Shown one piece after another: positions 5,014-58,643 of a stretch of 58,643 bases of DNA. The position numbers and the translations under genes are program-made. The notes under the pieces were generated by a model. The model had not been told where the DNA came from. It saw nothing but the letters and a program-made list of their open reading frames with translations, and did not search any database. Source of the stretch: a virus (lineage: Duplodnaviria > Caudoviricetes); the IMG/VR virus record IMGVR_UViG_3300036798_000432, positions 1-58,643 of that record; one strand, 5' to 3'. The number at the start of each line of letters is the position of its first letter. Position 1 is the first letter of the stretch.

Positions 5014-6258
5014 ATGCCAGACGAGGATACCAAGACACTACCGGAGACCGGCAATACGCCGAGCGATCTACGGACGATGATCGCCGACACTCTGCGCGAC
5101 GCCAAGGAGGCGGACGCGGCTGCACCGGCGGCACCAGCTGCAGGCGGCTTGTTCGAGGGCCGGACCGCGGTCGGAAGCGCCGCGGCGGGAAGCGGCGAGC
5201 CGCCGCCGAAGTCCGGTGAAGGCGAAGACAAGGACAAGGACAAGGACAAGAGTGGTGAGCCCGGGGCAGCTCCGGCACCTGGTCCGACCGAGCCGGCCGA
5301 GCGTGAGCCGACCGGGCCGGCGGCCGCACCGCAGCACTGGGCGGCCGAGGACAAGGCGACCTTTGAGGGATTGCCGACGGCCGCCAAGGGGCCTTTCCTC
5401 AATCTCTACAAGCGGATGGAGAAGGGGTTCCAGCCGCGGCTCGAAAAGCTGGCGACCCTCGAGAAGGATCTGCCGGCGATGCAGGAGCGGGTCCAGACCT
5501 ATGACCGCGACTATTCGGAGATCGACCGGGCATTTGCCCCGCACCGCGAAAAACTGCGTTCGCAGGGCCGCGGTCCGAAGGAGATTCTGCAAATTTGGTA
5601 CAATACCGAAGCCGGGCTCGCCAATCCCGAGCAGCGCGACGCGGTGGTCGCCAACATTATCGCCGGCTACCAGTGCGATCCATTCAAGATCGCCGAGCAT
5701 CTGAATGCCAGGCGGGGTTTTGCTCCGCAGCCCCCGGGTGGCGACGGGGGTGGGCAGCCGCAGCCGCAGATGCGCAGCCAGATCGATCCGGCGCTGGAGG
5801 CGCGGTTTAGCGCCCTGGAGAACGCCGAGCGTAATCGCGTCGAGACGATCGTGCGCGACAACATGGACAACGCCAAACGCATCTATGAGGACTTCGCCAA
5901 CGCCAAAGGGGCTGATGGCGAGCTCCTTCATCCCGAACTCGTGGCGCTGGAGCCCCTGATGACCGCTTTTGCCGATGTCGACCGCAAGGCCGGCAAGCAG
6001 ATCGATCTGCAGGACCTCTACACCCGAGCCGAATGGGCCACTCCCTCAACCCGTGACCGTCTCCTCGAAAGGCAGGGCGCCGACGAGCAGAGAAAAGCGG
6101 CAGACGAGCGGAAGGCCAAAGCCGAAGCCGCACGACGGGCTTCCTCGAGCGTCACTGGTTCCCCTGGACCCGGTGCAGCGCCGCAGGATCTCGGCGCGCC
6201 GGACCGATCCATCCGTGATGAAATCCGGGCCCAAATGAACGGCGGGCGCCGCAGCTAG
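5014..6258 (+). CDS. Head scaffolding protein
   Basis: Acidic disordered N-terminus, APQHW...F..LP motif, coiled coils, DLQDLY..A.WA.P..R. Directly upstream of the MCP. Confidence 0.85.
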   Translation: MPDEDTKTLPETGNTPSDLRTMIADTLRDAKEADAAAPAAPAAGGLFEGRTAVGSAAAGSGEPPPKSGEGEDKDKDKDKSGEPGAAPAPGPTEPAEREPTGPAAAPQHWAAEDKATFEGLPTAAKGPFLNLYKRMEKGFQPRLEKLATLEKDLPAMQERVQTYDRDYSEIDRAFAPHREKLRSQGRGPKEILQIWYNTEAGLANPEQRDAVVANIIAGYQCDPFKIAEHLNARRGFAPQPPGGDGGGQPQPQMRSQIDPALEARFSALENAERNRVETIVRDNMDNAKRIYEDFANAKGADGELLHPELVALEPLMTAFADVDRKAGKQIDLQDLYTRAEWATPSTRDRLLERQGADEQRKAADERKAKAEAARRASSSVTGSPGPGAAPQDLGAPDRSIRDEIRAQMNGGRRS

Positions 6259-6303
6259 CACCGCTCGCCTTAGGGCCCTTTCAGCAACCCAGGGGAGAAA
6301 GGC

Positions 6304-7335
6304 ATGCCCTCACCGAACCCGAATTGGGGTGAAATTACGACAACCACGTTGTTCAATCGGAGCCGAAAACTCGCAGACAATGTGACGAAGAACAACGCCA
6401 TCCTGGCAAGACTGTCGCAAAGGAACAAAGTCAAGCCTGTCGACGGCGGTCAGGCGATCGTGCAGGAGCTCGAATACAGCGAGAACGGGACCTATAAAAG
6501 GTACACCGGCTATGACATTTTGAATGTCTCGCCGTCGGATGTATTCACCGCCGCACAGTACCCGTGGGCACAGGCCGCTGTCGCGGTCAGCATCAGCGGT
6601 CTCGAGGAATTGCAGAACAGCGGCGAAGAGCGGATGATCGATCTGCTCGAGTCGCGCATCGGCAATGCCGAGAGGACGATGACCAACGGGATCTCGGGCG
6701 ACTGCTACGGCAACGGCACCTTGGACGGCGGCAAGCAGATCGGTGGTCTGCAATTGCTGGTCGCCGATGTGCAGACTGCCGGGGTGGTCGGTGGTATCGA
6801 TCGCGGGTTGTGGCCGTTTTGGCGGGCCTACATTGGTTCCTTCTCGGCGGCGGCAATAACTCCGGGAACAGCCACCATCCAAACCATGATGAACCGCCAA
6901 TGGTTAAATCAAGTCCGTGGGACCGATAGACCAGACCTAATAATAGCTGACAACGCTTACTTCAGTTTCTACTGGGAAAGCTTGCAAGCTATTCAGCGTA
7001 TCACCCAGGCTAACGAAGGAATGGCTGGTTTCCAGACGCTGAAATTTATGGACGCCGACGTTGTATTTGACGGCGGCTTCCAGGGTGTCGCGGGCGGTTC
7101 GGGGACGACGATCGGAGGGGGGATCACCTGGGCGACCCCGAGTGGTGCTCCGTCCAATCACATGTATTTCCTGAACACCGACTATATATTCCTGCGTCCG
7201 CATCGTGAACGGAACATGGTGCCGCTCAATCCCGACCGGTTCACGGTCAACCAAGACGCAATGGTCAAGTTGGTGGGGTGGGCCGGCAACATGACGATGA
7301 GCAACGCGTTCTTGCAAGGTGTGCTCATCAACTAG
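6304..7335 (+). CDS. Major capsid protein (HK97 fold, podovirus type)
   Basis: ITTTTLFNRSRKLADNVTKNNAIL, GGQAIVQELEY, SISGLEELQNSG, YFLNTDYIFLRPH, NQDA...WAGNMTMSN. Confidence 0.95.
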   Translation: MPSPNPNWGEITTTTLFNRSRKLADNVTKNNAILARLSQRNKVKPVDGGQAIVQELEYSENGTYKRYTGYDILNVSPSDVFTAAQYPWAQAAVAVSISGLEELQNSGEERMIDLLESRIGNAERTMTNGISGDCYGNGTLDGGKQIGGLQLLVADVQTAGVVGGIDRGLWPFWRAYIGSFSAAAITPGTATIQTMMNRQWLNQVRGTDRPDLIIADNAYFSFYWESLQAIQRITQANEGMAGFQTLKFMDADVVFDGGFQGVAGGSGTTIGGGITWATPSGAPSNHMYFLNTDYIFLRPHRERNMVPLNPDRFTVNQDAMVKLVGWAGNMTMSNAFLQGVLIN

Positions 7336-7371
7336 CCGGTCGTCGTGCTAACGCTTAGAGCGGAGTGAGAA

Positions 7372-7860
7372 ATGTCTTGGTCAATACAAGATGACTTGAT
7401 CGGCATGCCGCCGATCACGACTGTGGATGCCGCGCCGCGGGTGGCGCCCGGCATGATTGCGCATGCTGTCGATCCGGTGCTCGGCGGGGGCGAGTTTCTC
7501 TACCTCCCGGGGGTGGTCAATACGGTTGTCGGGTCGCTGGTGACTTACAACCAGGCGGCGCCGTCGACCACCTTGGCGGCGACCGGGGCGCAAAACGGCA
7601 ACCCGGTGGCGGTCGCCATGGCCGCGGTCGGGGCCGGGCAGTGGGGCTGGTTTCAGGTCACCGGCCAGGCCAAGATCGCCAAAACCGCGGTGGCGATCTC
7701 GCTGGGAGCCGCGCTGGCGATCAGCGCCACCGGCGGCCAGGTCGCTGCGGCCGGCACACCTGGTGCCGCCGGCTCGCTCGATGCTGCACTCTGCTCGGCT
7801 GCGGCACTGGCGGGCGATGCCACGGTGTCGGCGCAGATCTCGCGCCCGGCGCTCAACTAA
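7372..7860 (+). CDS. Capsid decoration/minor head protein
   Basis: GGGEFLYLPG...AVAMAA...QWGWFQVTG. Directly follows the MCP. Confidence 0.75.
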   Translation: MSWSIQDDLIGMPPITTVDAAPRVAPGMIAHAVDPVLGGGEFLYLPGVVNTVVGSLVTYNQAAPSTTLAATGAQNGNPVAVAMAAVGAGQWGWFQVTGQAKIAKTAVAISLGAALAISATGGQVAAAGTPGAAGSLDAALCSAAALAGDATVSAQISRPALN

Positions 7861-7871
7861 GGGCGCGCGAC

Positions 7872-8108
7872 ATGCCTGCAACGATGCATGACCTCGTCGG
7901 GGTCAAGATGGCGCCGGCTATGGCGAGACTGCTCGGCACCGACGGGGCAAACGGGGCTCCGGCGCGGATGCTGCAGCATGTCGGAATGCCCTCGCAGCTG
8001 GCGCGGCTGCTCGGCACCGATATGCCGGGCGGCGGCACCAGCGTGCCGATGAGGCAGCTGTGCAATCAAGGTATGCCGTGGGCGCAAGCGCAGCGTTTGG
8101 GGGTGTAG
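7872..8108 (+). CDS. Small protein made of three L-x-x-x-(G/K)M-x-x-x-x-A-x-x-LG repeats
   Basis: VKMAPAMARLLGTD / VGMPSQLARLLGTD / QGMPWAQAQRLGV. Confidence 0.7.
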   Translation: MPATMHDLVGVKMAPAMARLLGTDGANGAPARMLQHVGMPSQLARLLGTDMPGGGTSVPMRQLCNQGMPWAQAQRLGV

Positions 8109-9281
8109 ATGGCAACCAAACGCGAGGTCATGCTTGGCGGGATTCCCGCCAAGCTCGCCCACATGCTGGCGTCCGATCAGATCTCCAGTGCCGAGCCTCC
8201 CGTGATGGCCGGCGGCCCCGATCAGGCGAGTGCGCCGCTGCTCGAGAAAAACATCGCATATGTGACGATGACCGCCACGGGGCAGGCGGTGCGGCTGCGA
8301 CCGGCGACCGGGCAATACCTGCACTTTGTGCGCAACGGCAGCAGTGCCTTTGGGCCGCTTACCGTATGGCCGGATAGCGACGAGACCTTCAATCTGCATG
8401 CGCCGGGGCAGACCTGGGGCATTGCACCCGGCGGCAACGCGATCTTTATTCCGGCGCGCCGGCAATGGGCGGCGATCTCCGGGCTCAACGATTCGGCGGC
8501 CGGGCAGAGCCTGGTCGGCCCGGTCGGCATCGGCATGCACGCGCCGGCCGATGCCACGCCGGGCGACATGTTTATCGGCGAGGTGCTGTGCATCGCCCTT
8601 GGATTGCGCGGAGTGCAGGCGCCGCCGGCCACCGGGCGGCTGTGCTTTAACGCCTACTTCGACGCCAACGGGGTGTGGCGCTATCTGGCCAACGGGCCGG
8701 CGATGCAGTTGCGCTTTGATGGCAACTCGGGGGCGCTCGCGTTCCACACCGTGCCCTACGGGACGGCCGACTCGCCGATCGGTGCGTGGGACCCGGCACC
8801 ACCCTCGACCCCGGTCGTCTCGGTTGGCCCGACGGCGATGAGCCTCGGGGCGGTCGCCCCCTTGGATGCCGCGCAGAGCTCGTTTTTCGCCAATTACATC
8901 TGCGTGCCGTGGTCGACCGGGATCGGCGGTGCGCTGGCGGCGCGGATCAATCTCAACTGCTACTTCGATCAGTCGCTGGCTTTGCGCTACGCGGCCGCCG
9001 GGCCCGCCTATCGCATCGTCTTCCCGTCAACGGTCGGCGGATTGCCGGGGATGCATGTGCGTGGCGCGCCGGCTGGCACGACCGATGCGGTGGTGGCGGC
9101 ATTTACCGATTTTTTTGCGGCCCTCTCACCCGAACAGCTGACCACCGGCCAGACCAACATCCTGTTGACCACCAACGAGGGCGGCACGATCACCTTTCAG
9201 CAGGTATTGGTCGGCACGCCGTTGGCGGCGGCCGGGGGCGGTTTGCCGGTCGGCGCCCGCGCGCTCTACGTCACGACTTAG
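8109..9281 (+). CDS. Putative head fibre/spike (virion structural protein)
   Basis: N-terminal GIPAKLAHMLASD matches the repeat of the preceding gene. Two copies of FNAYFD...WRY / LNCYFD...LRY, as seen in fibre proteins. Confidence 0.6.
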   Translation: MATKREVMLGGIPAKLAHMLASDQISSAEPPVMAGGPDQASAPLLEKNIAYVTMTATGQAVRLRPATGQYLHFVRNGSSAFGPLTVWPDSDETFNLHAPGQTWGIAPGGNAIFIPARRQWAAISGLNDSAAGQSLVGPVGIGMHAPADATPGDMFIGEVLCIALGLRGVQAPPATGRLCFNAYFDANGVWRYLANGPAMQLRFDGNSGALAFHTVPYGTADSPIGAWDPAPPSTPVVSVGPTAMSLGAVAPLDAAQSSFFANYICVPWSTGIGGALAARINLNCYFDQSLALRYAAAGPAYRIVFPSTVGGLPGMHVRGAPAGTTDAVVAAFTDFFAALSPEQLTTGQTNILLTTNEGGTITFQQVLVGTPLAAAGGGLPVGARALYVTT

Positions 9282-9394
9282 AGCTTAACCGGCAGGGCCG
9301 CTCCCTGCCGGCTACGAGGGAGGTCGCCCCTCCCCAGGCGTGTGTCCCCGAGCGACGCGAGTGTCGGGGATAAACCCTTACCGAGGAGGACATC

Positions 9395-10171
9395 ATGCAG
9401 GGGTATTCCCGGACCTATGACGGTCCGGCGCGGTCGACGCGAGCCGAATTTTACAGCGACGCCGAACGCGACGGCTTTGCCAGCGCCCAGGCCGGCCGCG
9501 ACATCTTTCGCGATGTCGACCTGGTCAAGATCTTTATCCCGGGCTCCGGGACGATCCTGGTCGAGCGGGTCAACGAAGGGCATGTCGAGCGCTGGCCCGA
9601 CGAATTCCGCGCCTTCAAAGCGGGCAAGGAGGCGCCGCTCAGCGGCACGCCGCTGACCGAATGGCCGCTCCTCAAGCGGGCGCAGATCGCCGAGCTCAAT
9701 TACCGCAACATCCGCACGGTCGAGGACATCGCGCTGTTGTCGGATCTGGCGGTGCAAAATCTCGGGATGGGCGGGGTGATGCTGCGATCGCGCGCCAGGG
9801 CGTTTCTCGACGATGCCGAGCACGAGGCGCTGGCGACCAAGCTGGTCACCGAGAACGACAATCTGCGGATGCGGATCTCGACCCTCGAAAACCAGGTCGA
9901 GCAGCTCGGCCAGCAATTGCTGCAGACCACCCGGGCGATCGAGTTTCAGCGCACCCAGCCGATGATGCCGACCTATATCCCGGAGTTGCACGACCCGGTC
10001 GAGGCGGCCAAGCAGCAGCGGTTCAACAACCCGGTGCAGATGACCTCGGCGCTCGATGCTTTTGCCGATATGCCGGAGCGGCCGTTGCGCCTGCCGCGCG
10101 CCGCGGGGGCGGTGATGCCCGAGGAGATCGCGCCGGCAGCGCCGGCTTATGAGCAGCAGGCGGAGGCCTAA
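9395..10171 (+). CDS. Conserved phage protein (GTPLxxWP / RTVEDIA motifs, coiled-coil tail)
   Basis: Strong GAGGAGG SD. Motifs recur in the head-tail region of similar podophages. Confidence 0.8.
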   Translation: MQGYSRTYDGPARSTRAEFYSDAERDGFASAQAGRDIFRDVDLVKIFIPGSGTILVERVNEGHVERWPDEFRAFKAGKEAPLSGTPLTEWPLLKRAQIAELNYRNIRTVEDIALLSDLAVQNLGMGGVMLRSRARAFLDDAEHEALATKLVTENDNLRMRISTLENQVEQLGQQLLQTTRAIEFQRTQPMMPTYIPELHDPVEAAKQQRFNNPVQMTSALDAFADMPERPLRLPRAAGAVMPEEIAPAAPAYEQQAEA

Positions 10172-48899: not shown

Positions 48900-49106
48900 C
48901 TAGAATTCGATGATCAAACCTGTGGGGGCACGCAATATGATCTTGAGATCCCGGCGCTCCCGGCGGGCGTGGCGGGCGCAGGCCGTGAGCTCGTCGCGGT
49001 CGAGGCTCTTGGCCTGAAAGACCAGGCGAATGATGCTGTCGACCTCGCGGGTGATCGTCAGGTGCCAGGCTGGGCGGCGGCTGCCGCCGGTCGCGTCGAT
49101 GATCAT
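48900..49106 (-). CDS. Small hypothetical protein, paralogue of 26638..26805
   Basis: RLVFQAK..D..EL...AR.....IILRAPTG. Confidence 0.6.
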   Translation of the reverse strand: MIIDATGGSRRPAWHLTITREVDSIIRLVFQAKSLDRDELTACARHARRERRDLKIILRAPTGLIIEF

Positions 49107-50335
49107 GGGGTCGCTCCTTCCAGCGGCATGTCGATCGGGAATGGCAAGGCTTCGCACAGCGTTTGGTCTTCCGGGCGCATGCGGTTTGACTTGGCCGAAT
49201 TGTCGCGCGCCGGCAAATATTGCAAATTCCAAGGAACGTGCAGGCCGCTGATCGGGTAGCCTTCTGTTGTTATTGCGTGGGATTTTCGACCGCCCAATGG
49301 CACGATGTGGTCAACCTGTTTTCCGGCCGGGCAATCAGCAAAGATGCGTCTCAAGGCCGCAAGATTAACCCAAGGGGGCGCGCGATAGCTGGCGCGGTAT
49401 ATACTATTTCTAAGTTTTCGGCCCACCGGGTGGACCGTGGACCAGTCTTTGGACTGACGGTTTGTTTTGATTATTTGCTCTTCTGATTGATTGTTGCGCG
49501 TGTTCTGTTTGCTGAGTTGCACACAACCAAGACAGGCGTTGTCGGATACTCGGCGCTCGGTGATGTGGCCGTATTTGCAGGGTTCTCCCGTAAAAAAACG
49601 CTTCAGGCCGGCAGCGTGGGCGTCGACGCGGAGCCTCGCATTTTGCATAAGCCGCGGGCCGGGCGGCTTTGGCGGTTTAGGCGGTTTGGCTTGCCAGTGA
49701 TTGATTTGAGCGGCCGCGCATGCTAGGCACTCGCCATCCGACGTGAGCCGTTTAGACTTATGTCCGTTTGCGCAAGGTAGGCCTGTGGAATAATATTCCA
49801 GCCCAGCCGCGCGAGCCCTTTCGCGTGCGCCGATGCGCTGCGGCGGATGCGTCTTCTGGTAGTCGGCGCCACACCCGGCGCACCCGCTATTCGACGTGTA
49901 ACGCTGGGTATGTCCTTGCGGACAAGGCGAGCCGGTGAAGTATGGCAGCCCGGCGGCACGGGCCTCCTCACGAGCGCGTTGGTTTAGCGTCGGCCCCTTT
50001 GGCGGCGATTTGGGTCGGGCTGCGTTTCGGGTCTCCCAACAAGCAATACAGCCCCCTGTCGACACCCAGCGATCGGCGATGTGGCCGTGTTTGCAGGGCT
50101 TGCCCGTGAAGTAGCGCTGGAGCTCGAGGGCGCGGGCCGCCTGACGAATGGGCTGACTTAACGCCCACCCCGTTGGCGGGTGTTTGGGTTTCGAGCAGGC
50201 GACGCACCACTTTGTGGATACATAACGATCGGCGATGTGGCCGTGTTTGCAGGGCTGACCGGTGAAATAGTGTCGGAGCTTGCGGGCTTTGGCCTCGGCG
50301 CGGGTGATTATTTCGGGAAGGATAGTTTCGGGCAT
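49103..50335 (-). CDS. HNH endonuclease with five tandem Cys/His zinc-binding repeats
   Basis: (Y/F)-x-TG-x-PC-x-x-GH...R-x-x-S...CxxC five times. C-terminal VDHIVPL...GLHVPWNLQYL...N..KSN. Confidence 0.9.
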   Translation of the reverse strand: MPETILPEIITRAEAKARKLRHYFTGQPCKHGHIADRYVSTKWCVACSKPKHPPTGWALSQPIRQAARALELQRYFTGKPCKHGHIADRWVSTGGCIACWETRNAARPKSPPKGPTLNQRAREEARAAGLPYFTGSPCPQGHTQRYTSNSGCAGCGADYQKTHPPQRIGARERARAAGLEYYSTGLPCANGHKSKRLTSDGECLACAAAQINHWQAKPPKPPKPPGPRLMQNARLRVDAHAAGLKRFFTGEPCKYGHITERRVSDNACLGCVQLSKQNTRNNQSEEQIIKTNRQSKDWSTVHPVGRKLRNSIYRASYRAPPWVNLAALRRIFADCPAGKQVDHIVPLGGRKSHAITTEGYPISGLHVPWNLQYLPARDNSAKSNRMRPEDQTLCEALPFPIDMPLEGATP

Positions 50336-51198: not shown

Positions 51199-51283
51199 TG
51201 ATATTCCTCCGCGTGTTGCGTTAAGCGCCGGAACAATATGACAGAAACCCGTGCTTCGGGCAAGTGTACGGGAGGGGATTTTT

Positions 51284-51622
51284 GTGCCGCCACGTTGGAC
51301 AAAGGAGAACGACGCTTATGTCGACCGCCGCACCGCCGAGGGAGCGAATTACACGACGATTGCCGGGGAGCTCGGGCCCGAGATCACCGCCGCGGCGATC
51401 GCCGGCCGGATGCGGCGACGAATACTGGCCGCCGACGGCCGCGAGCCGATCAGTGCCGCCGTGCTCGATGAGCGTCTCACAACCGAGGGATGTCGCTGGG
51501 TCATTGGCGACCCCGGTCGCGGTGGTGACTGGCGTTGGTGCGGGGCAAAAATTATCGATGGCAGCTGGTGTGCGGAGCACGCCGCGATTGGGCGAATGCG
51601 AGGGGGAAGCAAACTACTATGA
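51284..51622 (+). CDS. gcrA: GcrA-family cell-cycle regulator (compact)
   Basis: N-terminal WT.E.......EG..Y..IA.ELG..IT..AIAG...R. C-terminal CRWVIGDP....WCG....WCAEH. GGAGG SD. Confidence 0.8.
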   Translation: MPPRWTKENDAYVDRRTAEGANYTTIAGELGPEITAAAIAGRMRRRILAADGREPISAAVLDERLTTEGCRWVIGDPGRGGDWRWCGAKIIDGSWCAEHAAIGRMRGGSKLL

Positions 51623-52191
51623 GACAGCAACGGGACAAGCGGCGGGTCGGGGGAGAGGAAGCGCGGATTGCACCACCGCCGGAGCGGTTTCGGGCAGATC
51701 ACGTCTCGGGTGCTCTGGTGGTGCGTTGCGAAGAGCCGGTGGCCGATGCCAATGGCGGAGTTGGCCGGCCGTGGAAGGCGCTCGACACACTGGCCAGGAT
51801 GGAGCGCGCCGGCTCGATCTCGCGTGGCATGCGAGCGGCCGGGGTCCTCTTTAACGAGTATTTTAACGATGCCGGCTTAGACCCGCTGTGGGCCGCCGAC
51901 CCAACGCGGATTCCGGTATTGACGATGAGCGGCAAGCCTTGGTCGATCGGTCGCCGCGGCTCGACCTCGGCGCTGGAGGCGGTGATCGATGCGTTGGTGA
52001 TGCTGGGTGGGATTTCGTCGCCCGGCGGGTCGTGTGCCTGGCATGTTCTGGGGTGCGAAATGACAATCGAACGCTGGGCAATCTCGCGATCGTGGTGCGG
52101 TCACCCGGTGCACCGCAAGGTGGCGGCCGGCATCCTGTTGACGGATCTCGGAATTTTGGAAAATTACTTTGGGCTGAGCAAAGACGCTTGA
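51619..52191 (+). CDS. Putative late transcription regulator (DUF6456-like)
   Basis: D.LARM...G.IS.....AG..F...F..AGL...AL..LGG..SP.GS.AWHV.G. Last gene before terL. Confidence 0.55.
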   Translation: MRQQRDKRRVGGEEARIAPPPERFRADHVSGALVVRCEEPVADANGGVGRPWKALDTLARMERAGSISRGMRAAGVLFNEYFNDAGLDPLWAADPTRIPVLTMSGKPWSIGRRGSTSALEAVIDALVMLGGISSPGGSCAWHVLGCEMTIERWAISRSWCGHPVHRKVAAGILLTDLGILENYFGLSKDA

Positions 52192-52275: not shown

Positions 52276-54483
52276 ATGATGCCGAGCTACGAGCCGCAGG
52301 GCGCGCAGCTGCGTGCCTTTTCCGCCTCCAATGCGTTTTTGCGGGCCCTGATCGGGCCGATCTACGGCGGCCGCAAAAGCTGCTGCATCAACGATATCGT
52401 TCGACGGGCGACAATCCGGCGGTGGGCGAAGCAAACCCGCTGGCGGTGGGTCGTAGTGGCGCCGATTCGCCGCGAGCTCGAGCGATTTGTGATCCCAACG
52501 ATCAAGAATTGGCTGGAAGTCGGCGAATACGACGACAAAGGGCGGCATTTCGCCCTGCATTACCGCCTCGAGGACGGGGTCCAGCGTCTGATCGAGATCG
52601 ATTTCCTCGGTATGGACGATGCGCAGGACCGAAAACGCTTCGCTGTGGCCACGGCGACGGGTGTCTGGCTCGATGATGCCCGAAATTTGAGCGAAAGCGT
52701 CCTCGAAGACGCGATGCGCATCGCCGGCACGTACCCGACACCGCTCGCCGGTGGGGCGATGTGGTCGGGGGTGATCTGCTCGTCGCGGATGCCGCCGCCT
52801 GGTCATTGGCTGGTGCGCAGGCCAGAGGACCCGGGCGATTTACAGCTGTTTCGTCAGCCTGGCGGGCGGACCGCGGAGGCCGAGAACCTGCCGGCGCTGC
52901 AGGCCAGGGGCTTCAGCTACGAGGCGTTTGCCAGCGAGCGCGACGCCGACTGGATCAGGGTCAATATCGACGGCGAGCTCGGGCAAACCGCGACCGAGGC
53001 GGCGGCCGAGGCCGAACGAGCCGCTGCCCGCCAGCAATTGACCCGTTGGGTCGGGCTGACGATGCCCGATTTGACGCCGGCACGGCATCACGAGCTGCTG
53101 ATTGCCAAGCTCGAGGCCCTGGCGCGGCGCGAAATCAAGCGTTTGATGTTCTTTTTGCCGCCTGGATCGGCCAAAAGCACCTATGGCAGCGTGCTTTTCC
53201 CCTCCTGGTACATCGGCAACCACCCGACGCACTCGGTAATCGCCGCCTCGCACTCCAAGGAGCTCGCCGAGCGGTTTGGCCGCCGGGTCCGCAACATCGT
53301 CGGTTCACCAATCTTTCGGGAAACGTTCGGGTTTGGCCTGAGCGGCGATTCGGGTGCCGCCGGGCGCTGGGAAACCGCCCGCGGGGGCGAATATTTTGCC
53401 GTCGGCGTCGACGCCTCGGTCACCGGCCGGCGCGCCCATCTCGGTATCATCGATGATCCGGTCAAAGGCCGCGCCGAGGCCGACAGTGCGACGATCCGGC
53501 AGCACGTTTGGGAGTGGTACAAGGCCGATTTCTGGACCCGGCTCGTGCCCGAGGCGACGATGCTCTACATCGGCACCCGGTGGCACGAGGATGATCTCGC
53601 CGGGCGCCTGCTCGAGGACGCCAAGGTCGGCGGCGAGCAATGGGAAGTGGTCAGTCTGCCGGCGATCGTCGAGGAGGAGGGGGATGCGCTGGGCCGGATC
53701 ATCGGCGAGCGGCTCTGGCCCGAGTGGTACACCCCGGAGATGCTGGAGGTCGCCCAGCGCGACACGCGGAACTGGTCGGCACTCTGGCAGCAGCGGCCAA
53801 TGCCGGAATCGGGCGACTATTTCCAGAATGACTGGGTGCGCTGGTATGACAGCGCCCCGCCGCGTGACCGGCTGCGCACCTATGGCGCCTCGGATTACGC
53901 GGTGAAGGCCAATGCCGGCGACTGGACGGTGCACCTGGTCGCCGGGATCGACCCCAACGATGATCTCTATCTCCTAGATCTGTGGCGCAAACAAACCGCC
54001 TCGAACGAATGGGTCGAGTCGGTTATCGATCTGATGGATCTGTGGAAAACCATCACCTGGGCCGAGGAGGCCGGGCAGATCGAGAAGGGGGTCGGGCCGT
54101 TTCTGACCAAGCGTCAGCTCGAGCGCAAGATCTACGCGGTCAGAAAGCAATACAGCTCGGCCGCGGACAAGGCGGTGCGAGCCCAGGCGATCCGCGGCCG
54201 GGTGGCGATGGGCAAGGTGTACTTGCCCAAGCGCGCGCCCTGGGCGCCGGTGCTGCTCGACGAAATGCTGCGCTTTCCGGCTGGGAAAGCAGATGACCAG
54301 GTCGACGGCCTGGCCCTTTTGGGCCGGATGCTCGACGAGATGGTGCCGGGGAGCAAACCCAAGCCGGCGGCCGAGGAGCCGCGCGGGGTTTCCGGCATGA
54401 CGCTCGACGAGCTGTGGAAGCTCGATAAGCGATATTTCAAAAATGGCCGGTTTGTCGGGGATGGTCGGCCGCTGAGGATCTGA
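52276..54483 (+). CDS. terL: Terminase large subunit with an extra, degenerate N-terminal TerL ATPase domain
   Basis: Intact unit: PPGSAKST, IIDDP, GTRWH, nuclease ASDYA / AEEA / DDQVD. Extra unit: GPIYGGRKS, GVWLDD, G.YP...GG..WSG, FRQPGG....AENL. Confidence 0.9.
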   Translation: MMPSYEPQGAQLRAFSASNAFLRALIGPIYGGRKSCCINDIVRRATIRRWAKQTRWRWVVVAPIRRELERFVIPTIKNWLEVGEYDDKGRHFALHYRLEDGVQRLIEIDFLGMDDAQDRKRFAVATATGVWLDDARNLSESVLEDAMRIAGTYPTPLAGGAMWSGVICSSRMPPPGHWLVRRPEDPGDLQLFRQPGGRTAEAENLPALQARGFSYEAFASERDADWIRVNIDGELGQTATEAAAEAERAAARQQLTRWVGLTMPDLTPARHHELLIAKLEALARREIKRLMFFLPPGSAKSTYGSVLFPSWYIGNHPTHSVIAASHSKELAERFGRRVRNIVGSPIFRETFGFGLSGDSGAAGRWETARGGEYFAVGVDASVTGRRAHLGIIDDPVKGRAEADSATIRQHVWEWYKADFWTRLVPEATMLYIGTRWHEDDLAGRLLEDAKVGGEQWEVVSLPAIVEEEGDALGRIIGERLWPEWYTPEMLEVAQRDTRNWSALWQQRPMPESGDYFQNDWVRWYDSAPPRDRLRTYGASDYAVKANAGDWTVHLVAGIDPNDDLYLLDLWRKQTASNEWVESVIDLMDLWKTITWAEEAGQIEKGVGPFLTKRQLERKIYAVRKQYSSAADKAVRAQAIRGRVAMGKVYLPKRAPWAPVLLDEMLRFPAGKADDQVDGLALLGRMLDEMVPGSKPKPAAEEPRGVSGMTLDELWKLDKRYFKNGRFVGDGRPLRI

Positions 54484-54904: not shown

Positions 54905-56647
54905 ATGGCCGATTTAGCGGTTGCCTCGACAGTTGTCGGCACGATCGAAGAGCGCAAGGACCTCGGCACCGAGCCGAATGCGATCTGGCGCTTCTGGAAC
55001 TCGCAGCTGAAGCTCGCCGAGCGAACTGATGAGGACTGGATCAAGCGGGGGCGCCAGGCAGTCGACCGGTACCGCGACGAGCGCGACCAGAACGAGGCGC
55101 GGGCCAGCAAATACAACGTCTTGTGGTCAAATGTGGAGACCCTCAAGCCGGTGCTCTACGGGCGGACGCCAGAACCGGACGTCGCCCGCCGGCACAAGGA
55201 TCAGCATGACGCAGTGGCCTCGCTGGGCGCCCAGATCCTCGAAACCGCGCTGGATTACGAGAACGATATCGAAGAATTCGACGCGGTGATGCAGCAAGTC
55301 GTCGAAGATCGGTTATTGCCCGGCCGTGGTGTCGCCAGAGTGTTCTACGAGCCGGAATTTGGCGAGGAAGAGGAAGACCAAGACGCCGAGCCCGATGAAG
55401 AGGGTAATCAGCCGACATTTCAGTCGGTGACCAATGAGAGAGCGCCGGTGCGCTATGTATTCTGGGAAGATTACCGAGAAACACCGGCCAGAACGGAAGG
55501 CGAGATCTGGTGGAAGGCCTACCGGGTATTTATGACCCGCGACGAGCTCGTCGAGCGGTTTGGCAGTGAAATCGGCAAAAAGGTGACCCTCGATTACACC
55601 CCGTCGGGGGTGCATGCGGTGGCCAGCGAGGCGCAATGGGGCCCGCTGGCGGACATGTTCAAAAAGGCGACCGTCTGGGAGATTTGGGACCGCAAACGCA
55701 AGGAAGCGGTGTGGATCGCCAAGGCCTGGTCGGACGCGCCGCTCGACAGCCAGGACGACCCTTTGGAATTGCCGGATTTTTTCCCGTCGCCGCCGGCTTT
55801 GCGGGCGACCACGACCAATGAGCAGCGGGTCTCGGTCAACGATTATGTTGAATATCAAGACCAGGCGATGGAGCTCGACACATTGACCGCGCGGATCGAC
55901 CGCCTGACCCGGGCGCTCAAGGTCTCGGGTGTCTATGCGGGCTCGGAGAAGATGACCCTGCAGCAGCTGGTCGACGATTCGAGCGAGAACAAATTGATCC
56001 CGGTCGAGGATTGGACCGGGTTTGCCGGCGACAAGGGCGGGCTCAACGGGTTGATCCAGTGGCTGCCGGTCGAGCAGATCGCTCGCGTCCTGATCCAGCT
56101 CTATGACGCCCGCGAGCGCACCCTGCGGATCATCTACCAGACGACCGGCATCGCCGACATTCTGCGCGGCGAAACCAATCCGATCGAGACGCTGGGCGCG
56201 CAGCAGCTGAAGACCCAGTTTGCGACCCGGCGCATCACCCGGGCGCAAAAGGACGTCGCCCGCTTCGCCCGCGATCTGCTGCGGCTCAAAGGGGCGGTGA
56301 TGGCGCGGCATTTTATGCCCGAGACGCTCTCGCGGATGTCCGGGCTTCCCGAACCGCTCCCGGCACTGCCGCCACCCCCGCCGATGATGATCCCGGCGCC
56401 GTCTCCTGCGGCGGCCGGTTCGGCGCTAGGCGGCCCGGCGCTACCCTCGTCGGCTCCCGTCCCGGGAGCGGTACCAGCAAGGCCCCCGGGCATGGCCCCG
56501 GGCCTTCCGCCGGGTGCTGGTGGTGCACCTGGCATCCGGCCACCCCTGGCACCGGCGGCGCCGGTGCCAGGGGCACGGCTCGCGCCCGATGGCCGCCATT
56601 ATGTGCCGGACCCGCGGCGCCCCGGCAAATACCTGATGGTGGCTTAA
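54905..56647 (+). CDS. Portal protein, N-terminal fragment (split portal, part 1)
   Basis: YNVLWSNVETLKP.LY...P.PDV.RR, DRLLPGRGVARV, VWEIWD, DPLEL..FFP.P, IYQ.TGIADILRG, ETLGAQQLK. Then Pro-rich tail and stop, lacking the IDIEADST region. Confidence 0.9.
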   Translation: MADLAVASTVVGTIEERKDLGTEPNAIWRFWNSQLKLAERTDEDWIKRGRQAVDRYRDERDQNEARASKYNVLWSNVETLKPVLYGRTPEPDVARRHKDQHDAVASLGAQILETALDYENDIEEFDAVMQQVVEDRLLPGRGVARVFYEPEFGEEEEDQDAEPDEEGNQPTFQSVTNERAPVRYVFWEDYRETPARTEGEIWWKAYRVFMTRDELVERFGSEIGKKVTLDYTPSGVHAVASEAQWGPLADMFKKATVWEIWDRKRKEAVWIAKAWSDAPLDSQDDPLELPDFFPSPPALRATTTNEQRVSVNDYVEYQDQAMELDTLTARIDRLTRALKVSGVYAGSEKMTLQQLVDDSSENKLIPVEDWTGFAGDKGGLNGLIQWLPVEQIARVLIQLYDARERTLRIIYQTTGIADILRGETNPIETLGAQQLKTQFATRRITRAQKDVARFARDLLRLKGAVMARHFMPETLSRMSGLPEPLPALPPPPPMMIPAPSPAAAGSALGGPALPSSAPVPGAVPARPPGMAPGLPPGAGGAPGIRPPLAPAAPVPGARLAPDGRHYVPDPRRPGKYLMVA

Positions 56648-56660
56648 GCCGGGAGGGCCG

Positions 56661-58643
56661 ATGTCGGAGACTCGGGTTGACCCGGACACCGGTGCCACCC
56701 TGGTGCCGGTCGATCACGACCCGTACACCGAGGCGTCGCCGCCGGGTTATTTTGACAAGATCGGTCAGGATCTCGCCGATTTCTGGCAGCAGCCGCTGGC
56801 CCACGTCAAACAGCGATTGTCCGATATCGGACAGTCGTTTAGCGATGTCGCGACCGGTGGATTGCAGCGCCAGGCCGAGCTCACCGGTGCGGACTATTCA
56901 GGCCAGCCGCTGATCGGGGTCGATCCCTCGAGCGGCGAGCTCACCGGGCGATTGCCGGCATTGGCCGAGCTGGCGCGCAGTGGCATGGCTGGGCCGGTGC
57001 CGGGTGGCGCCTTGGGTGCGGGGCCGGCGATCCTCGGACGAGCGGGCCGTGCTGCGGCCGAGGCGGGCAATCTCGACACGCCGATCAGCGACACATTGCA
57101 GGCCGGCAAGTTCGCTGATCAGCTGCGGGCCGAGCACCTGGCGCGCGACAGCGGGTTGCCGTTGAGCGGTGCCGATCAGCCGGTCAGCCCGCCGCCGCAC
57201 ATCCAGACGCCGGCCGACATGGATGGGCTGGTCAACCGTTACGCCGATCTTGCCGAAAGCGGGGCTAATGCCAAGGATTGGTACGCTCAAAGCGGACGGG
57301 CAATCCTCAACGCGGCCGGTGACCCCGAGGCCGCCGACCGTCTGGCCGCGACGTTGGCGGTATCCTCGCCACGCACTAGTGTCGCCGAGAACGCATCGCG
57401 GGCCGTCACGCTATGGAACCAGGCGATGACCAACGAGCCGGTGCTCGCGGTCGGCGGCCGCGGCGGCATGCAGATCGGTGAGCGCGCGGCACCGCTGCTC
57501 TACGAGGGCGCGCCGATGACCGGCGAGAAGACCGGACCCTTTAAGACCGCGCTGGGCTTGACCTGGGATCCCGACCCGGCCGGGCATCCCTTTGTCAACG
57601 ACATCTGGAACATGCGCGCCGCCGAATATCCGCCCGAGCTCGGCAGTGACAAAACGGCGCCCTACTACACCGGCTCGCCGACCCTTGGGCAGCACAACTT
57701 CACGAGAATTCTGGCGGACCGGGCGGCCGATGTGCTGAATTCGCGCACCGGCGAGAATTGGAGCCCGGAACAGATCCAGGCCTCGGTGTGGGCGGGCAAG
57801 AAATCGGCGGTCGAGGGCACGCCGGTCGGGGATGCGGCGTTCAATTTCGCCGACGCGCTGAAGTCCCGCTTTGGGCAGCAGAGCTGGGAGTCGGCGCCGG
57901 GCGAGACCTCCAACAACCTGCCCGAGTTTCATCAGGCCGCGGCGCCGGACCAGCAGGCCTATCACGACGCGATCCGCGGTGCGCTGGAGGACGATCAGGG
58001 GCGCGACATCATCTCGCGCCACCTGGGGCTGCTGACCGGGCCCAGCTTTGAAGGGCCGGGGGTCTTTCAAGGAGTGGTGCGGCCGGGGAGCCAGGCGCAA
58101 AGCCTGGCCGGCGCGGCGATACAGGGCGGCTATCTCGGCGGGGTCGATCAATCGACCCGCGACCTCTTCGACACCGCGGAAGCCACTCGAGGGCTGCTAT
58201 TGCGCCAGGATGCTTCGGCCTGGCACGTGCCGACCTATCGGGCTGGGCTCAAGCCGGGCGACAGCAACATGGTCGACGTCAATATCGGCCGGCCGCTCAG
58301 TGCCGAGGAGGCGCGTTCGGTGGTCGATGCGATGCAGACGGCGACCGGCAAGGACTTCTTCAGCCCGATCGCGACGCAGAACGGGTTCCGCCTGCAGAAC
58401 GTGCCCGACCAATCGGGCGTCAAGAACATAGACTTCCAAAAGTCGGTTGAAAAAGCCCTCGGAAATGCCGATTTTCAAGGGGTCGACAAGGCCGAATTGA
58501 CACCCGCCTTTGCCGATGGGAATTACATCTCGAACGATTGGGGCCAGCAGTCCAATGGTCAAGGTTATCTGGAAGCCATCGCCGGGACCGGAAGACCCGA
58601 TCTTCAACGAAGGTCCGCGGAGCTACTCGCCACATTGGGGCCG
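56661..58643 (+). CDS. Large cargo protein (continues to 344) with an HhH-glycosylase-like/DUF7178-like domain
   Basis: GGAGG SD. No stop through the window end in my translation. WY...LAVSSPRTSV.EN...GEKT.PF...VNDIW...EQIQASVW. Starts ...LVPVDHDPY. Confidence 0.75.
   Translation, partial: MSETRVDPDTGATLVPVDHDPYTEASPPGYFDKIGQDLADFWQQPLAHVKQRLSDIGQSFSDVATGGLQRQAELTGADYSGQPLIGVDPSSGELTGRLPALAELARSGMAGPVPGGALGAGPAILGRAGRAAAEAGNLDTPISDTLQAGKFADQLRAEHLARDSGLPLSGADQPVSPPPHIQTPADMDGLVNRYADLAESGANAKDWYAQSGRAILNAAGDPEAADRLAATLAVSSPRTSVAENASRAVTLWNQAMTNEPVLAVGGRGGMQIGERAAPLLYEGAPMTGEKTGPFKTALGLTWDPDPAGHPFVNDIWNMRAAEYPPELGSDKTAPYYTGSPTLGQHNFTRILADRAADVLNSRTGENWSPEQIQASVWAGKKSAVEGTPVGDAAFNFADALKSRFGQQSWESAPGETSNNLPEFHQAAAPDQQAYHDAIRGALEDDQGRDIISRHLGLLTGPSFEGPGVFQGVVRPGSQAQSLAGAAIQGGYLGGVDQSTRDLFDTAEATRGLLLRQDASAWHVPTYRAGLKPGDSNMVDVNIGRPLSAEEARSVVDAMQTATGKDFFSPIATQNGFRLQNVPDQSGVKNIDFQKSVEKALGNADFQGVDKAELTPAFADGNYISNDWGQQSNGQGYLEAIAGTGRPDLQRRSAELLATLGP
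58492..58643. repeat. Terminal direct repeat, right copy
   Basis: Matches 1-152. Confidence 0.95.

Follow-up and report, generated by a model that had tools for sequence, protein, structure and literature searches.

A terminase with two ATPase-fold domains in a tailed-phage genome: a catalytically altered N-terminal domain as a candidate accessory module

In the virus record IMGVR_UViG_3300036798_000432 (Duplodnaviria; Caudoviricetes), analysed here over its full 58,643 bp and called the window below, one gene specifies a large terminase in which the ATPase fold occurs twice. The textbook terminase of tailed phages consists of one large subunit (TerL), which combines an ATPase and a nuclease, and a separate, ring-forming small subunit (TerS). 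The 735-residue protein of the window begins with a domain, hereafter the N-domain, that belongs to the ATPase fold of one TerL lineage and has its catalytic residues replaced, and it continues with a complete TerL of a different lineage. The fusion dates far back, has a single origin within this TerL lineage and is maintained by purifying selection. We tentatively read the N-domain as a non-catalytic accessory module of the terminase that would act in place of, or like, the small terminase, a reading to which we assign slightly less than an even chance. A search of the full-text literature, with subscription literature and supplements outside its scope, turned up no terminase described as having a second or an inactive ATPase domain, and the fused arrangement with a dead ATPase seems to be undescribed.

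Results

One open reading frame joins two terminase lineages

The gene is a single unbroken open reading frame (ORF; 52219/52276-54483, + strand) that encodes 735 residues from the ATG at 52276, and the homologue P0005 begins at the Met equivalent to this ATG (P and L numbers denote the proteins and loci compared). Its parts are the following.

52276..52983, + strand: N-terminal pseudo-ATPase domain, residues 1-236; Terminase_3/Mx8-type TerL ATPase fold with the catalytic residues replaced
52984..53079, + strand: junction, residues 237-268; the pseudo-ATPase ends and the native N-terminal helix of the TerL follows directly
53080..53775, + strand: active-type TerL ATPase, residues 269-500, Terminase_6N (PF03237 E 3.6e-13, phrog_38, phrog_4758)
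53776..54375, + strand: RNase H-like nuclease, residues 501-700, Terminase_6C (PF17289 E 1.6e-7, TIGR01630 E 4.5e-12, phrog_5573)
54376..54483, + strand: variable C-terminal tail, residues 701-735 plus stop; 16-65% identity among fused relatives, near-identical P0005 aside

Matches to Pfam, PHROGs and NCBIfam are confined to residues ~238-701 of the protein. The C part (~240-735) is a complete Terminase_6N/6C TerL (phrog_38, E 1e-109) and passes the curated cut-offs of PF03237 (50.1 bits, cut-off 22), PF17289 (31.9, cut-off 22.6) and TIGR01630 (46.7, cut-off 41.65). Its ATPase motifs are LPPGSAKST (294-302), LGIIDDP (389-395) and GTRWHEDD (433-440), and its nuclease motifs are YGASDYA (536-542) and GKADDQVD (670-677). 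Across 60 aligned TerLs, PPGSAKS, IIDDP, TRW, GASDYA and DDQVD sit in invariant columns, and the nuclease-domain residues D297, D430, D431 and D434 (P0003 numbering) are likewise invariant. Residues ~261-700 are 44-46% identical to the phrog_38 TerLs of Microcystis Mwe-JY13, Pseudanabaena Pam1 and Brucella Tb, and the C part is 53-66% identical to metagenomic TerLs of ~495 residues, with all catalytic motifs kept. Residues ~240-735 are presumably the working motor. The phrog_38 TerLs lack the N-domain and start where window residue ~235-244 aligns; the N-termini of 59 unfused TerLs align at, or at most ~10 residues before, window residue 244. The DNA at the junction is plain, in frame and unremarkable.

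An N-terminal TerL-type ATPase fold with altered motifs

When residues 1-243 were used as a tblastn query, 20 phage records matched, with 80% or more of the query covered in 17, and all matches lay in the N-terminal ATPase half of TerLs of 450-480 residues at 25-31% identity (best E 1e-25, at 29-31% identity). They include the TerLs of Rhizobium RHph_TM3_14A, Mx8, Cronobacter Ss1 and BcepC6B, and the Mx8 TerL is itself a Terminase_3/phrog_2 protein. A phmmer search over 1.84 billion representatives with the N-domain as query gave 920 matches at E≤1e-3, with 346 at E≤1e-10. Profile comparison by hhalign aligned the N-domain family with canonical TerLs over 232 columns (probability 100%, E 2.8e-52), the alignment stopping at the ATPase-nuclease boundary. 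The ESM Atlas model of the free-standing homologue P0053 (predicted template modelling score, pTM, 0.79) superposes on TerL ATPase domains at template modelling (TM) scores of 0.76-0.82. The Pfam, PHROGs and NCBIfam models returned nothing for residues 1-243 at E≤1 to 10, and a sequence search of solved structures gave one chance-level match for the N-domain (E 1.1), none for the N-domain family profile and none for the C part.

The N-terminal motifs align column by column with GP.GSGK[ST], W.NE, DTN.P and F.QP.G...AEN of the canonical TerLs, at the following positions.

52354..52380, + strand: altered P-loop GPIYGGRKS, residues 27-35; Arg in the Walker lysine column, then Lys-Ser, ungapped against canonical sequences
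52660..52683, + strand: altered Walker B GVWLDDAR, residues 129-136; Asp where the canonical W.NE has Glu
52777..52809, + strand: CSSRMPPPGHW, residues 168-178; takes the place of the canonical DTNPP coupling-motif region
52849..52887, + strand: FRQPGGRTAEAEN, residues 192-204; motif common to pseudo and canonical domains

Residues were compared between 51 pseudo (variant) and 142 canonical domains among the N-domain-like matches. The canonical consensus reads GP.GSGK[ST], W.NE and DTNPP, whereas that of the variant group reads GP..[GA]GRK[ST], WL..AR and [ST]SRMP. The columns replaced in the variant group are ones with over 80% conservation among the canonical domains. The Walker lysine column (33) holds K in 92% of canonical rows and R in 92% of pseudo rows, and the catalytic Glu column (134) holds E in 96% of canonical rows, compared with D in 65% of pseudo rows and otherwise N, S, G, A or R. 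In the coupling motif, D169, T170 and N171 give way to a variable residue, S and R; S and R each occupy 96% of the pseudo rows, against T in 76% and N in 96% of the canonical ones. The arginine columns R54, R62, R149 and R152 are R in 91-96% of canonical domains; the window has T, A, I and T there, and the commonest pseudo-clade residues are R (47%), R (45%), I (57%) and S (24%), respectively. Q194, P195, G197, A202, E203 and N204 are kept in both groups. Newly conserved in the pseudo group are R33, K34, Q53, W56, R119, R121, R171, M172, R182, R193 and R198, seven of which are arginines, and the median isoelectric point (pI) is 8.36 in the pseudo group as compared with 6.40 in the canonical one.

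Among 28 aligned fused proteins, GP.[YH][GA]GR[KR][ST] and [ST]SRMP are present in every one, GRK[ST] in 27 and WLDD in 21, and the catalytic column is always acidic (27 Asp, one Glu). Deeper members of the pseudo clade also lack K[ST], with GGGAAT in P0070 and GGGREK in P0057, and over the wider clade the catalytic column is D, N, E, S, G, A or R. The N-domain has no RNase H nuclease of its own; it ends at ~236, and another TerL then starts. In T4 gp17, K-to-R and E-to-D changes at the equivalent positions abolish ATPase activity. Because its catalytic residues are replaced, we infer that the N-domain no longer hydrolyses ATP.

A first-pass annotation of the window, made from the sequence alone, had assigned residues 1-236 to a TerL ATPase lineage and had described GPIYGGRKS, GVWLDD and SSRMP as altered catalytic motifs and the rest as a full TerL of a different type. 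All three statements are borne out: the motifs lie in the expected order and replace the canonical columns, the search for a TerL ATPase match to the N-domain that had been proposed as a check found one, and the second TerL has its motifs intact. The same annotation had placed an Ala/Glu linker between the two halves; the alignment of the 59 unfused N-termini identifies this segment instead as the native N-terminal helix of the C-part TerL.

The Walker B of the canonical Mx8-type TerLs reads W-x-N-E, with Asn (89%) where Asp is expected before the catalytic Glu.

A single, conserved fusion in this TerL lineage

A search scored on residues 1-243 gave 42 proteins, 32 of them at 47-99% N-domain identity. 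Within these 32, 31 are 677-1062 residues long and one is a 486-residue fragment, and the remaining 10 of the 42 are unfused TerLs at 25-34% identity. In viral contigs, the phrog_38-type fusion was present in 19 of the 31 best loci examined, and locus L024 carries a different fusion. Fused relatives reach down to 38-47% N-domain identity. When the near-identical P0005 and the frameshifted tail of P0011 are set aside, the identity of fused relatives to the window is 47-83% in the N-domain, 68-89% in the active ATPase and 64-88% in the nuclease. Among cultured-phage records, none of the 2308 matching ones covers 80% of the 735-residue protein.

In a FastTree phylogeny of 123 C parts, 44 fused proteins fall into one clade with a support of 100, and a quick IQ-TREE run on 65 rows recovered the fused clade, again with a support of 100. 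P0204, which lies inside this clade, is a 477-residue call that begins at an internal Met; its contig is 2.2 kb long, and the call is probably truncated. The sister of the fused clade comprises 44 rows; 43 are unfused TerLs, and the remaining row has another kind of N-terminal extension. Because more unfused clades branch outside the fused and sister clades, the fusion is the derived state, a polarity that rests on parsimony as the trees are unrooted. The C-part search is in line with this picture: the fused proteins it gave extend to 65% identity, and many unfused TerLs of ~495 residues follow at 53-66%.

Purifying selection on the N-domain is as strong as on the active domains. The ratio of nonsynonymous to synonymous substitutions (dN/dS) was calculated by the Nei-Gojobori method for pairs with unsaturated dS only, and for the N-domain, the active ATPase and the nuclease, respectively, it was 0.059, 0.042 and 0.000 between the window and L006, 0.019, 0.098 and 0.046 between L018 and L019, and 0.177, 0.165 and 0.145 between L007 and L008. 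This check on the relatives had been suggested with the first-pass annotation, and the N-domain range of 0.019-0.177 (0.02-0.18 when rounded) speaks for constraint like that on the active domains.

The pseudo-ATPase as a separate clade with other partners

In a tree of 93 domains, 45 canonical and 48 pseudo rows are split by a branch of length 0.73 with 99% support in the approximate likelihood-ratio test (SH-aLRT). Because of this long and well-supported branch, the tree indicates that the pseudo-ATPase is an old, distinct lineage and no decaying relic. The pseudo-ATPase also has other fusion partners, of at least two or three TerL types: phrog_2/phrog_5902 TerLs in P0052 and P0070, a Terminase_6N/phrog_31467 TerL in P0057 and L024, and a divergent TerL in L087. 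When viral contigs were searched for relatives of the P0052 and P0070 fusions, they yielded unfused TerLs only. In L024 (a 63-kb contig; 5983-9409), the pseudo-ATPase is joined to a Terminase_6N ATPase only, the gene (5983-8424) also carries a LAGLIDADG intein, and the nuclease is a separate 222-residue ORF (phrog_5653) 320 bp downstream, which suggests that this TerL is split.

Free-standing forms also exist. The 302-residue ORF of L086 follows a homologue of the upstream ORF described below for the window, and its own stop codon overlaps the ATG of the next gene (an ATGA overlap). P0288 (280 residues, 46% identity, 99% coverage) occurs on contigs of up to 51 kb, and further free-standing forms of 266-287 residues occur on contigs of 1-12 kb. 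Several apparently short proteins proved to be contig-end fragments; P0060, for example, is the start of the L087 fusion.

The two halves have not always travelled together. L028 (511-2727) is far from L018 in the N-domain (dN 0.68) and close to it in the active ATPase (dN 0.076), and in P0058 the N-domain branches deep while the C part is nested. Both cases point to domain swapping or recombination at the junction.

Selfish elements are frequent in the TerL genes of this neighbourhood: Hom_end/LAGLIDADG inteins lie in P0014 (1062 residues) and L024, and in Brucella Tb-like phages an HNH endonuclease ORF splits the TerL match.

The N-domain in the small-terminase position

The genes that flank the fused gene and bear on its history are the following.

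51251-51622, + strand: GcrA-like small protein (PF07750 E 1.5e-9); its stop overlaps the start of the upstream ORF at 51619
51619..52191, + strand: conserved upstream gene, 190 residues from the ATG at 51619; family without known match
54905..56647, + strand: portal protein, the terminase partner, 580 residues (phrog_12082 E 6e-139)

Unfused sister phages share this neighbourhood. In loci L100-L111, L116 and L159, the TerL is 60-65% identical to the C part of the window and the portal is 58-65% identical to its portal, compared with 64-65% for the portals of fused relatives. The upstream ORF family is present in L107, L108, L109 and L159 at 37-40% identity, and the gene order is alike; in L151, the TerL is 53% identical over a partial match and the upstream ORF 42%. 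None of the sister loci has an N-domain within 5 kb, and 3 of the 80 loci have an N-domain match, all three in fused ORFs. A small ORF lies directly upstream of TerL in seven of the sister loci (L100, L103, L107-L109, L151 and L159), and in four of the seven it matches TerS families: phrog_1482 (5e-39 and 3e-25), phrog_309 (5e-48) and, weakly, phrog_2538. In the other three it matches phrog_11043, which may represent an unannotated small-terminase family.

L108, 4275-4631: phrog_11043 ORF in the TerS slot
L159, 4736-5053: phrog_11043 ORF in the TerS slot
L109, 959-1357: phrog_11043 ORF in the TerS slot

In fused loci, the upstream ORF ends 85 to ~450 bp before the N-domain. Because the unfused sisters share the TerL, the portal, the upstream gene and the gene order and lack the N-domain, the comparison of gene neighbourhoods indicates that the Terminase_6 TerL of the C part is the resident motor and the N-domain an added element in the TerS slot.

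The window itself was searched for a small terminase. Queries with 12 TerS or TerS-slot proteins of sister phages and Mx8-type phages gave nothing below E 0.049 against its six-frame translation, the models PF03592, PF05119, PF06056, PF16677, phrog_1482, phrog_309 and phrog_2538 gave no match at E≤0.1 in the genome, and no PHROG or Pfam TerS model matched residues 1-243.

The upstream ORF, with the motif SPGGSCAWHVLGCE...GILLTDLGIL, precedes the fused TerL in 15 related loci, and it also precedes the TerS-slot ORFs of the unfused L107, L108, L109, L151 and L159. It was ruled out as the small terminase, since it is present beside TerS-slot ORFs in these unfused sisters. It has no Pfam, PHROG or PADLOC match. 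A kinship with the genes upstream of canonical Mx8-type TerLs was also rejected, as its hidden Markov model (HMM) gave no match below E 0.03 to 71 of 72 such ORFs, and the sole strong match, L017, is a fused locus.

Discussion

A candidate substitute for the small terminase

In the reading that we tentatively prefer, only the second of the two ATPase-fold domains would work as an enzyme, and the N-domain would take over all or part of the small-terminase job, that is, holding or recognising DNA, assembling or regulating TerL, or both. Seated at the N-terminus of TerL, it may nucleate and regulate the motor subunit, and the gained arginines and the basic shift in pI are consistent with DNA binding. 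The permanent tether would have arisen through loss of the stop codon that separated two coupled genes, which is the simplest origin because the join runs end to start at the native TerL N-terminus. A broader version of this proposal, which we hold as possible rather than probable, is that a catalysis-dead TerL ATPase has been re-used as a new accessory subunit that displaces TerS, either free-standing or repeatedly fused to unrelated TerLs; the resulting terminases would contain two ATPase folds and no TerS, and DNA recognition, motor assembly or both would fall to the dead domain.

Several observations weigh against this interpretation. The phrog_11043 ORFs that fill the slot in three of the seven sister loci are annotated as "unknown function". 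The lack of a recognisable TerS in a genome estimated to be 98% complete is weak evidence: in a control, of 10 ORFs that precede canonical Mx8-type TerLs, PHROGs named only two as TerS. The true pac-recognition factor could be the GcrA-like protein; its gene is kept two genes upstream in the fused loci L006-L008, L010/L114, L011 and L112, and it has one weak match (E 0.006), in one locus, among the unfused sisters. The genomic contexts of the module vary, and only its link to TerL is constant. L024, for example, has a portal-like gene from another family (phrog_332) and lacks the window-type upstream gene. As for the free-standing forms, a search for their context returned nothing from genome contigs and viral contigs and two short relevant contigs from metagenomes. 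Lastly, because the altered motifs are strictly kept in the subclade of the window (GRK[ST] in 27 of 28, an acidic residue in 28 of 28), nucleotide binding or slow hydrolysis is possible.

This last point leads to the strongest rival, in which the N-domain would be a nucleotide-binding, possibly slow regulatory ATPase that senses ATP or gates the motor as a second or hetero-ring. The constancy of the altered P-loop and of [ST]SRMP in all 28 members of the phrog_38-fused family and of Asp in 27 of them, as well as the dN/dS of the N-domain, which is as low as in the active domains, would fit such a role. However, the catalytic column varies clade-wide, P0070 and P0057 have lost K[ST] too, the canonical arginines R54, R62, R149 and R152 are lost, and in T4 gp17 the changes at the equivalent Lys and Glu abolish activity. 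We therefore consider a regulatory ATPase unlikely.

The first-pass annotation had proposed that the motor was replaced and the old ATPase kept, as an adaptor for the resident TerS among other roles. In this scheme an incoming Terminase_6 TerL would have displaced an Mx8-type motor, whose ATPase would persist as an adaptor to TerS/pac or to the portal. The N-domain does derive ultimately from a Terminase_3/Mx8-type ATPase, and portals of phrog_12082 adjoin canonical Mx8-type TerLs in Mx8 and at least 11 metagenomic loci at 31-36% identity (35.5% between the window and Mx8 portals). The sister phages, however, speak against this order of events, as they combine the same portal, upstream gene and TerL lineage with slot ORFs and no N-domain, and the unfused clades outside them make the fusion derived and the C-part TerL resident. 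Moreover, the pseudo clade predates the fusion and has partners in other TerL lineages and in another portal family, and the HMM of the upstream ORF matches no non-fused ORF of the 72-ORF set below E 0.03. The TerS-adaptor role is doubtful in its own right, since no TerS was found for the N-domain to adapt to, although this is a weak negative. The portal-adaptor idea is weakened by L024, which pairs the module with the different portal-like family phrog_332. Motor replacement is thus improbable as an account of this gene.

A role against host defence, with the N-domain as a shield or decoy for terminase-sensing immunity such as Avs, appears very improbable: its sole argument is that the domain has a TerL-like fold dispensable for catalysis, whereas a covalently joined TerL fold would add a target and hide none, and the module lies in the TerS slot of the packaging operon, has a long history and shows steady purifying selection without the marks of an arms race. 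PADLOC models gave no match, a result that says little on such a role. That neighbouring genes were joined by a frameshift, a chimeric assembly or a mistaken gene call has next to no probability, because, although free-standing forms with overlapping stop and start exist and a single-base error could mimic a fusion in one contig, the same unbroken ORF recurs in 44 protein clusters drawn from several sources as well as in 19 independent viral loci, and the junction is plain, so that the sequencing join raised as a concern in the first-pass annotation does not account for the gene.

Relation to known terminases

The closest relatives of the N-domain are the Terminase_3 (PF04466)/Mx8-type TerLs (Mx8 AAK94379, BcepC6B), with which it shares the fold and collinear motifs at 25-31% identity. 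It differs from them in having no Walker lysine, catalytic Glu, canonical arginines, DTN motif or nuclease, and it forms a separate clade (99%) that the Pfam model misses. With the small terminases (phrog_1482, phrog_309, phrog_51) it shares the place in the operon, next upstream of the TerL N-terminus and coupled or fused to it, where it alternates with TerS between sister phages. The free-standing forms are 270-300 residues long. In contrast, the N-domain has no sequence or fold relation to the TerS families tested, being a P-loop ATPase fold rather than a helix-turn-helix (HTH) domain with an oligomerisation ring. By these comparisons, its resemblance to TerS is one of position and partner only.

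Inactive ATPase-fold paralogues are kept beside active ones, and under selection, in other nucleic-acid motors and loaders. The window protein differs from these analogues in that its inactive and active domains come from two TerL lineages and lie in one polypeptide.

If the N-domain replaces TerS, these phages would have an independently evolved way of recognising DNA and regulating the motor, and the domain would be a clear case of a viral pseudoenzyme. Since it is invisible to Pfam, PHROGs and NCBIfam, annotation pipelines miss it, and the chimeric gene could mislead TerL phylogenies and pac-type predictions for these phages. The coexistence of fused and free-standing forms also offers a tractable system for features of the TerL ATPase beyond hydrolysis.

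Genomic setting

The window begins with the head, tail and ejection genes and ends with the packaging genes; a primase-helicase is encoded near 39-41.6 kb. One further ORF follows the portal.

56661-58643, + strand: post-portal ORF of at least 661 residues that runs off the 3' end of the record; without Pfam or PHROG match

Upstream of the packaging genes, a 410-residue protein encoded on the - strand (49103-50335) consists of five tandem Cys/His-rich modules of ~45 residues (phrog_1081, five stretches) followed by a C-terminus that resembles endonuclease VII/HNH proteins (phrog_1035, E 5e-21).

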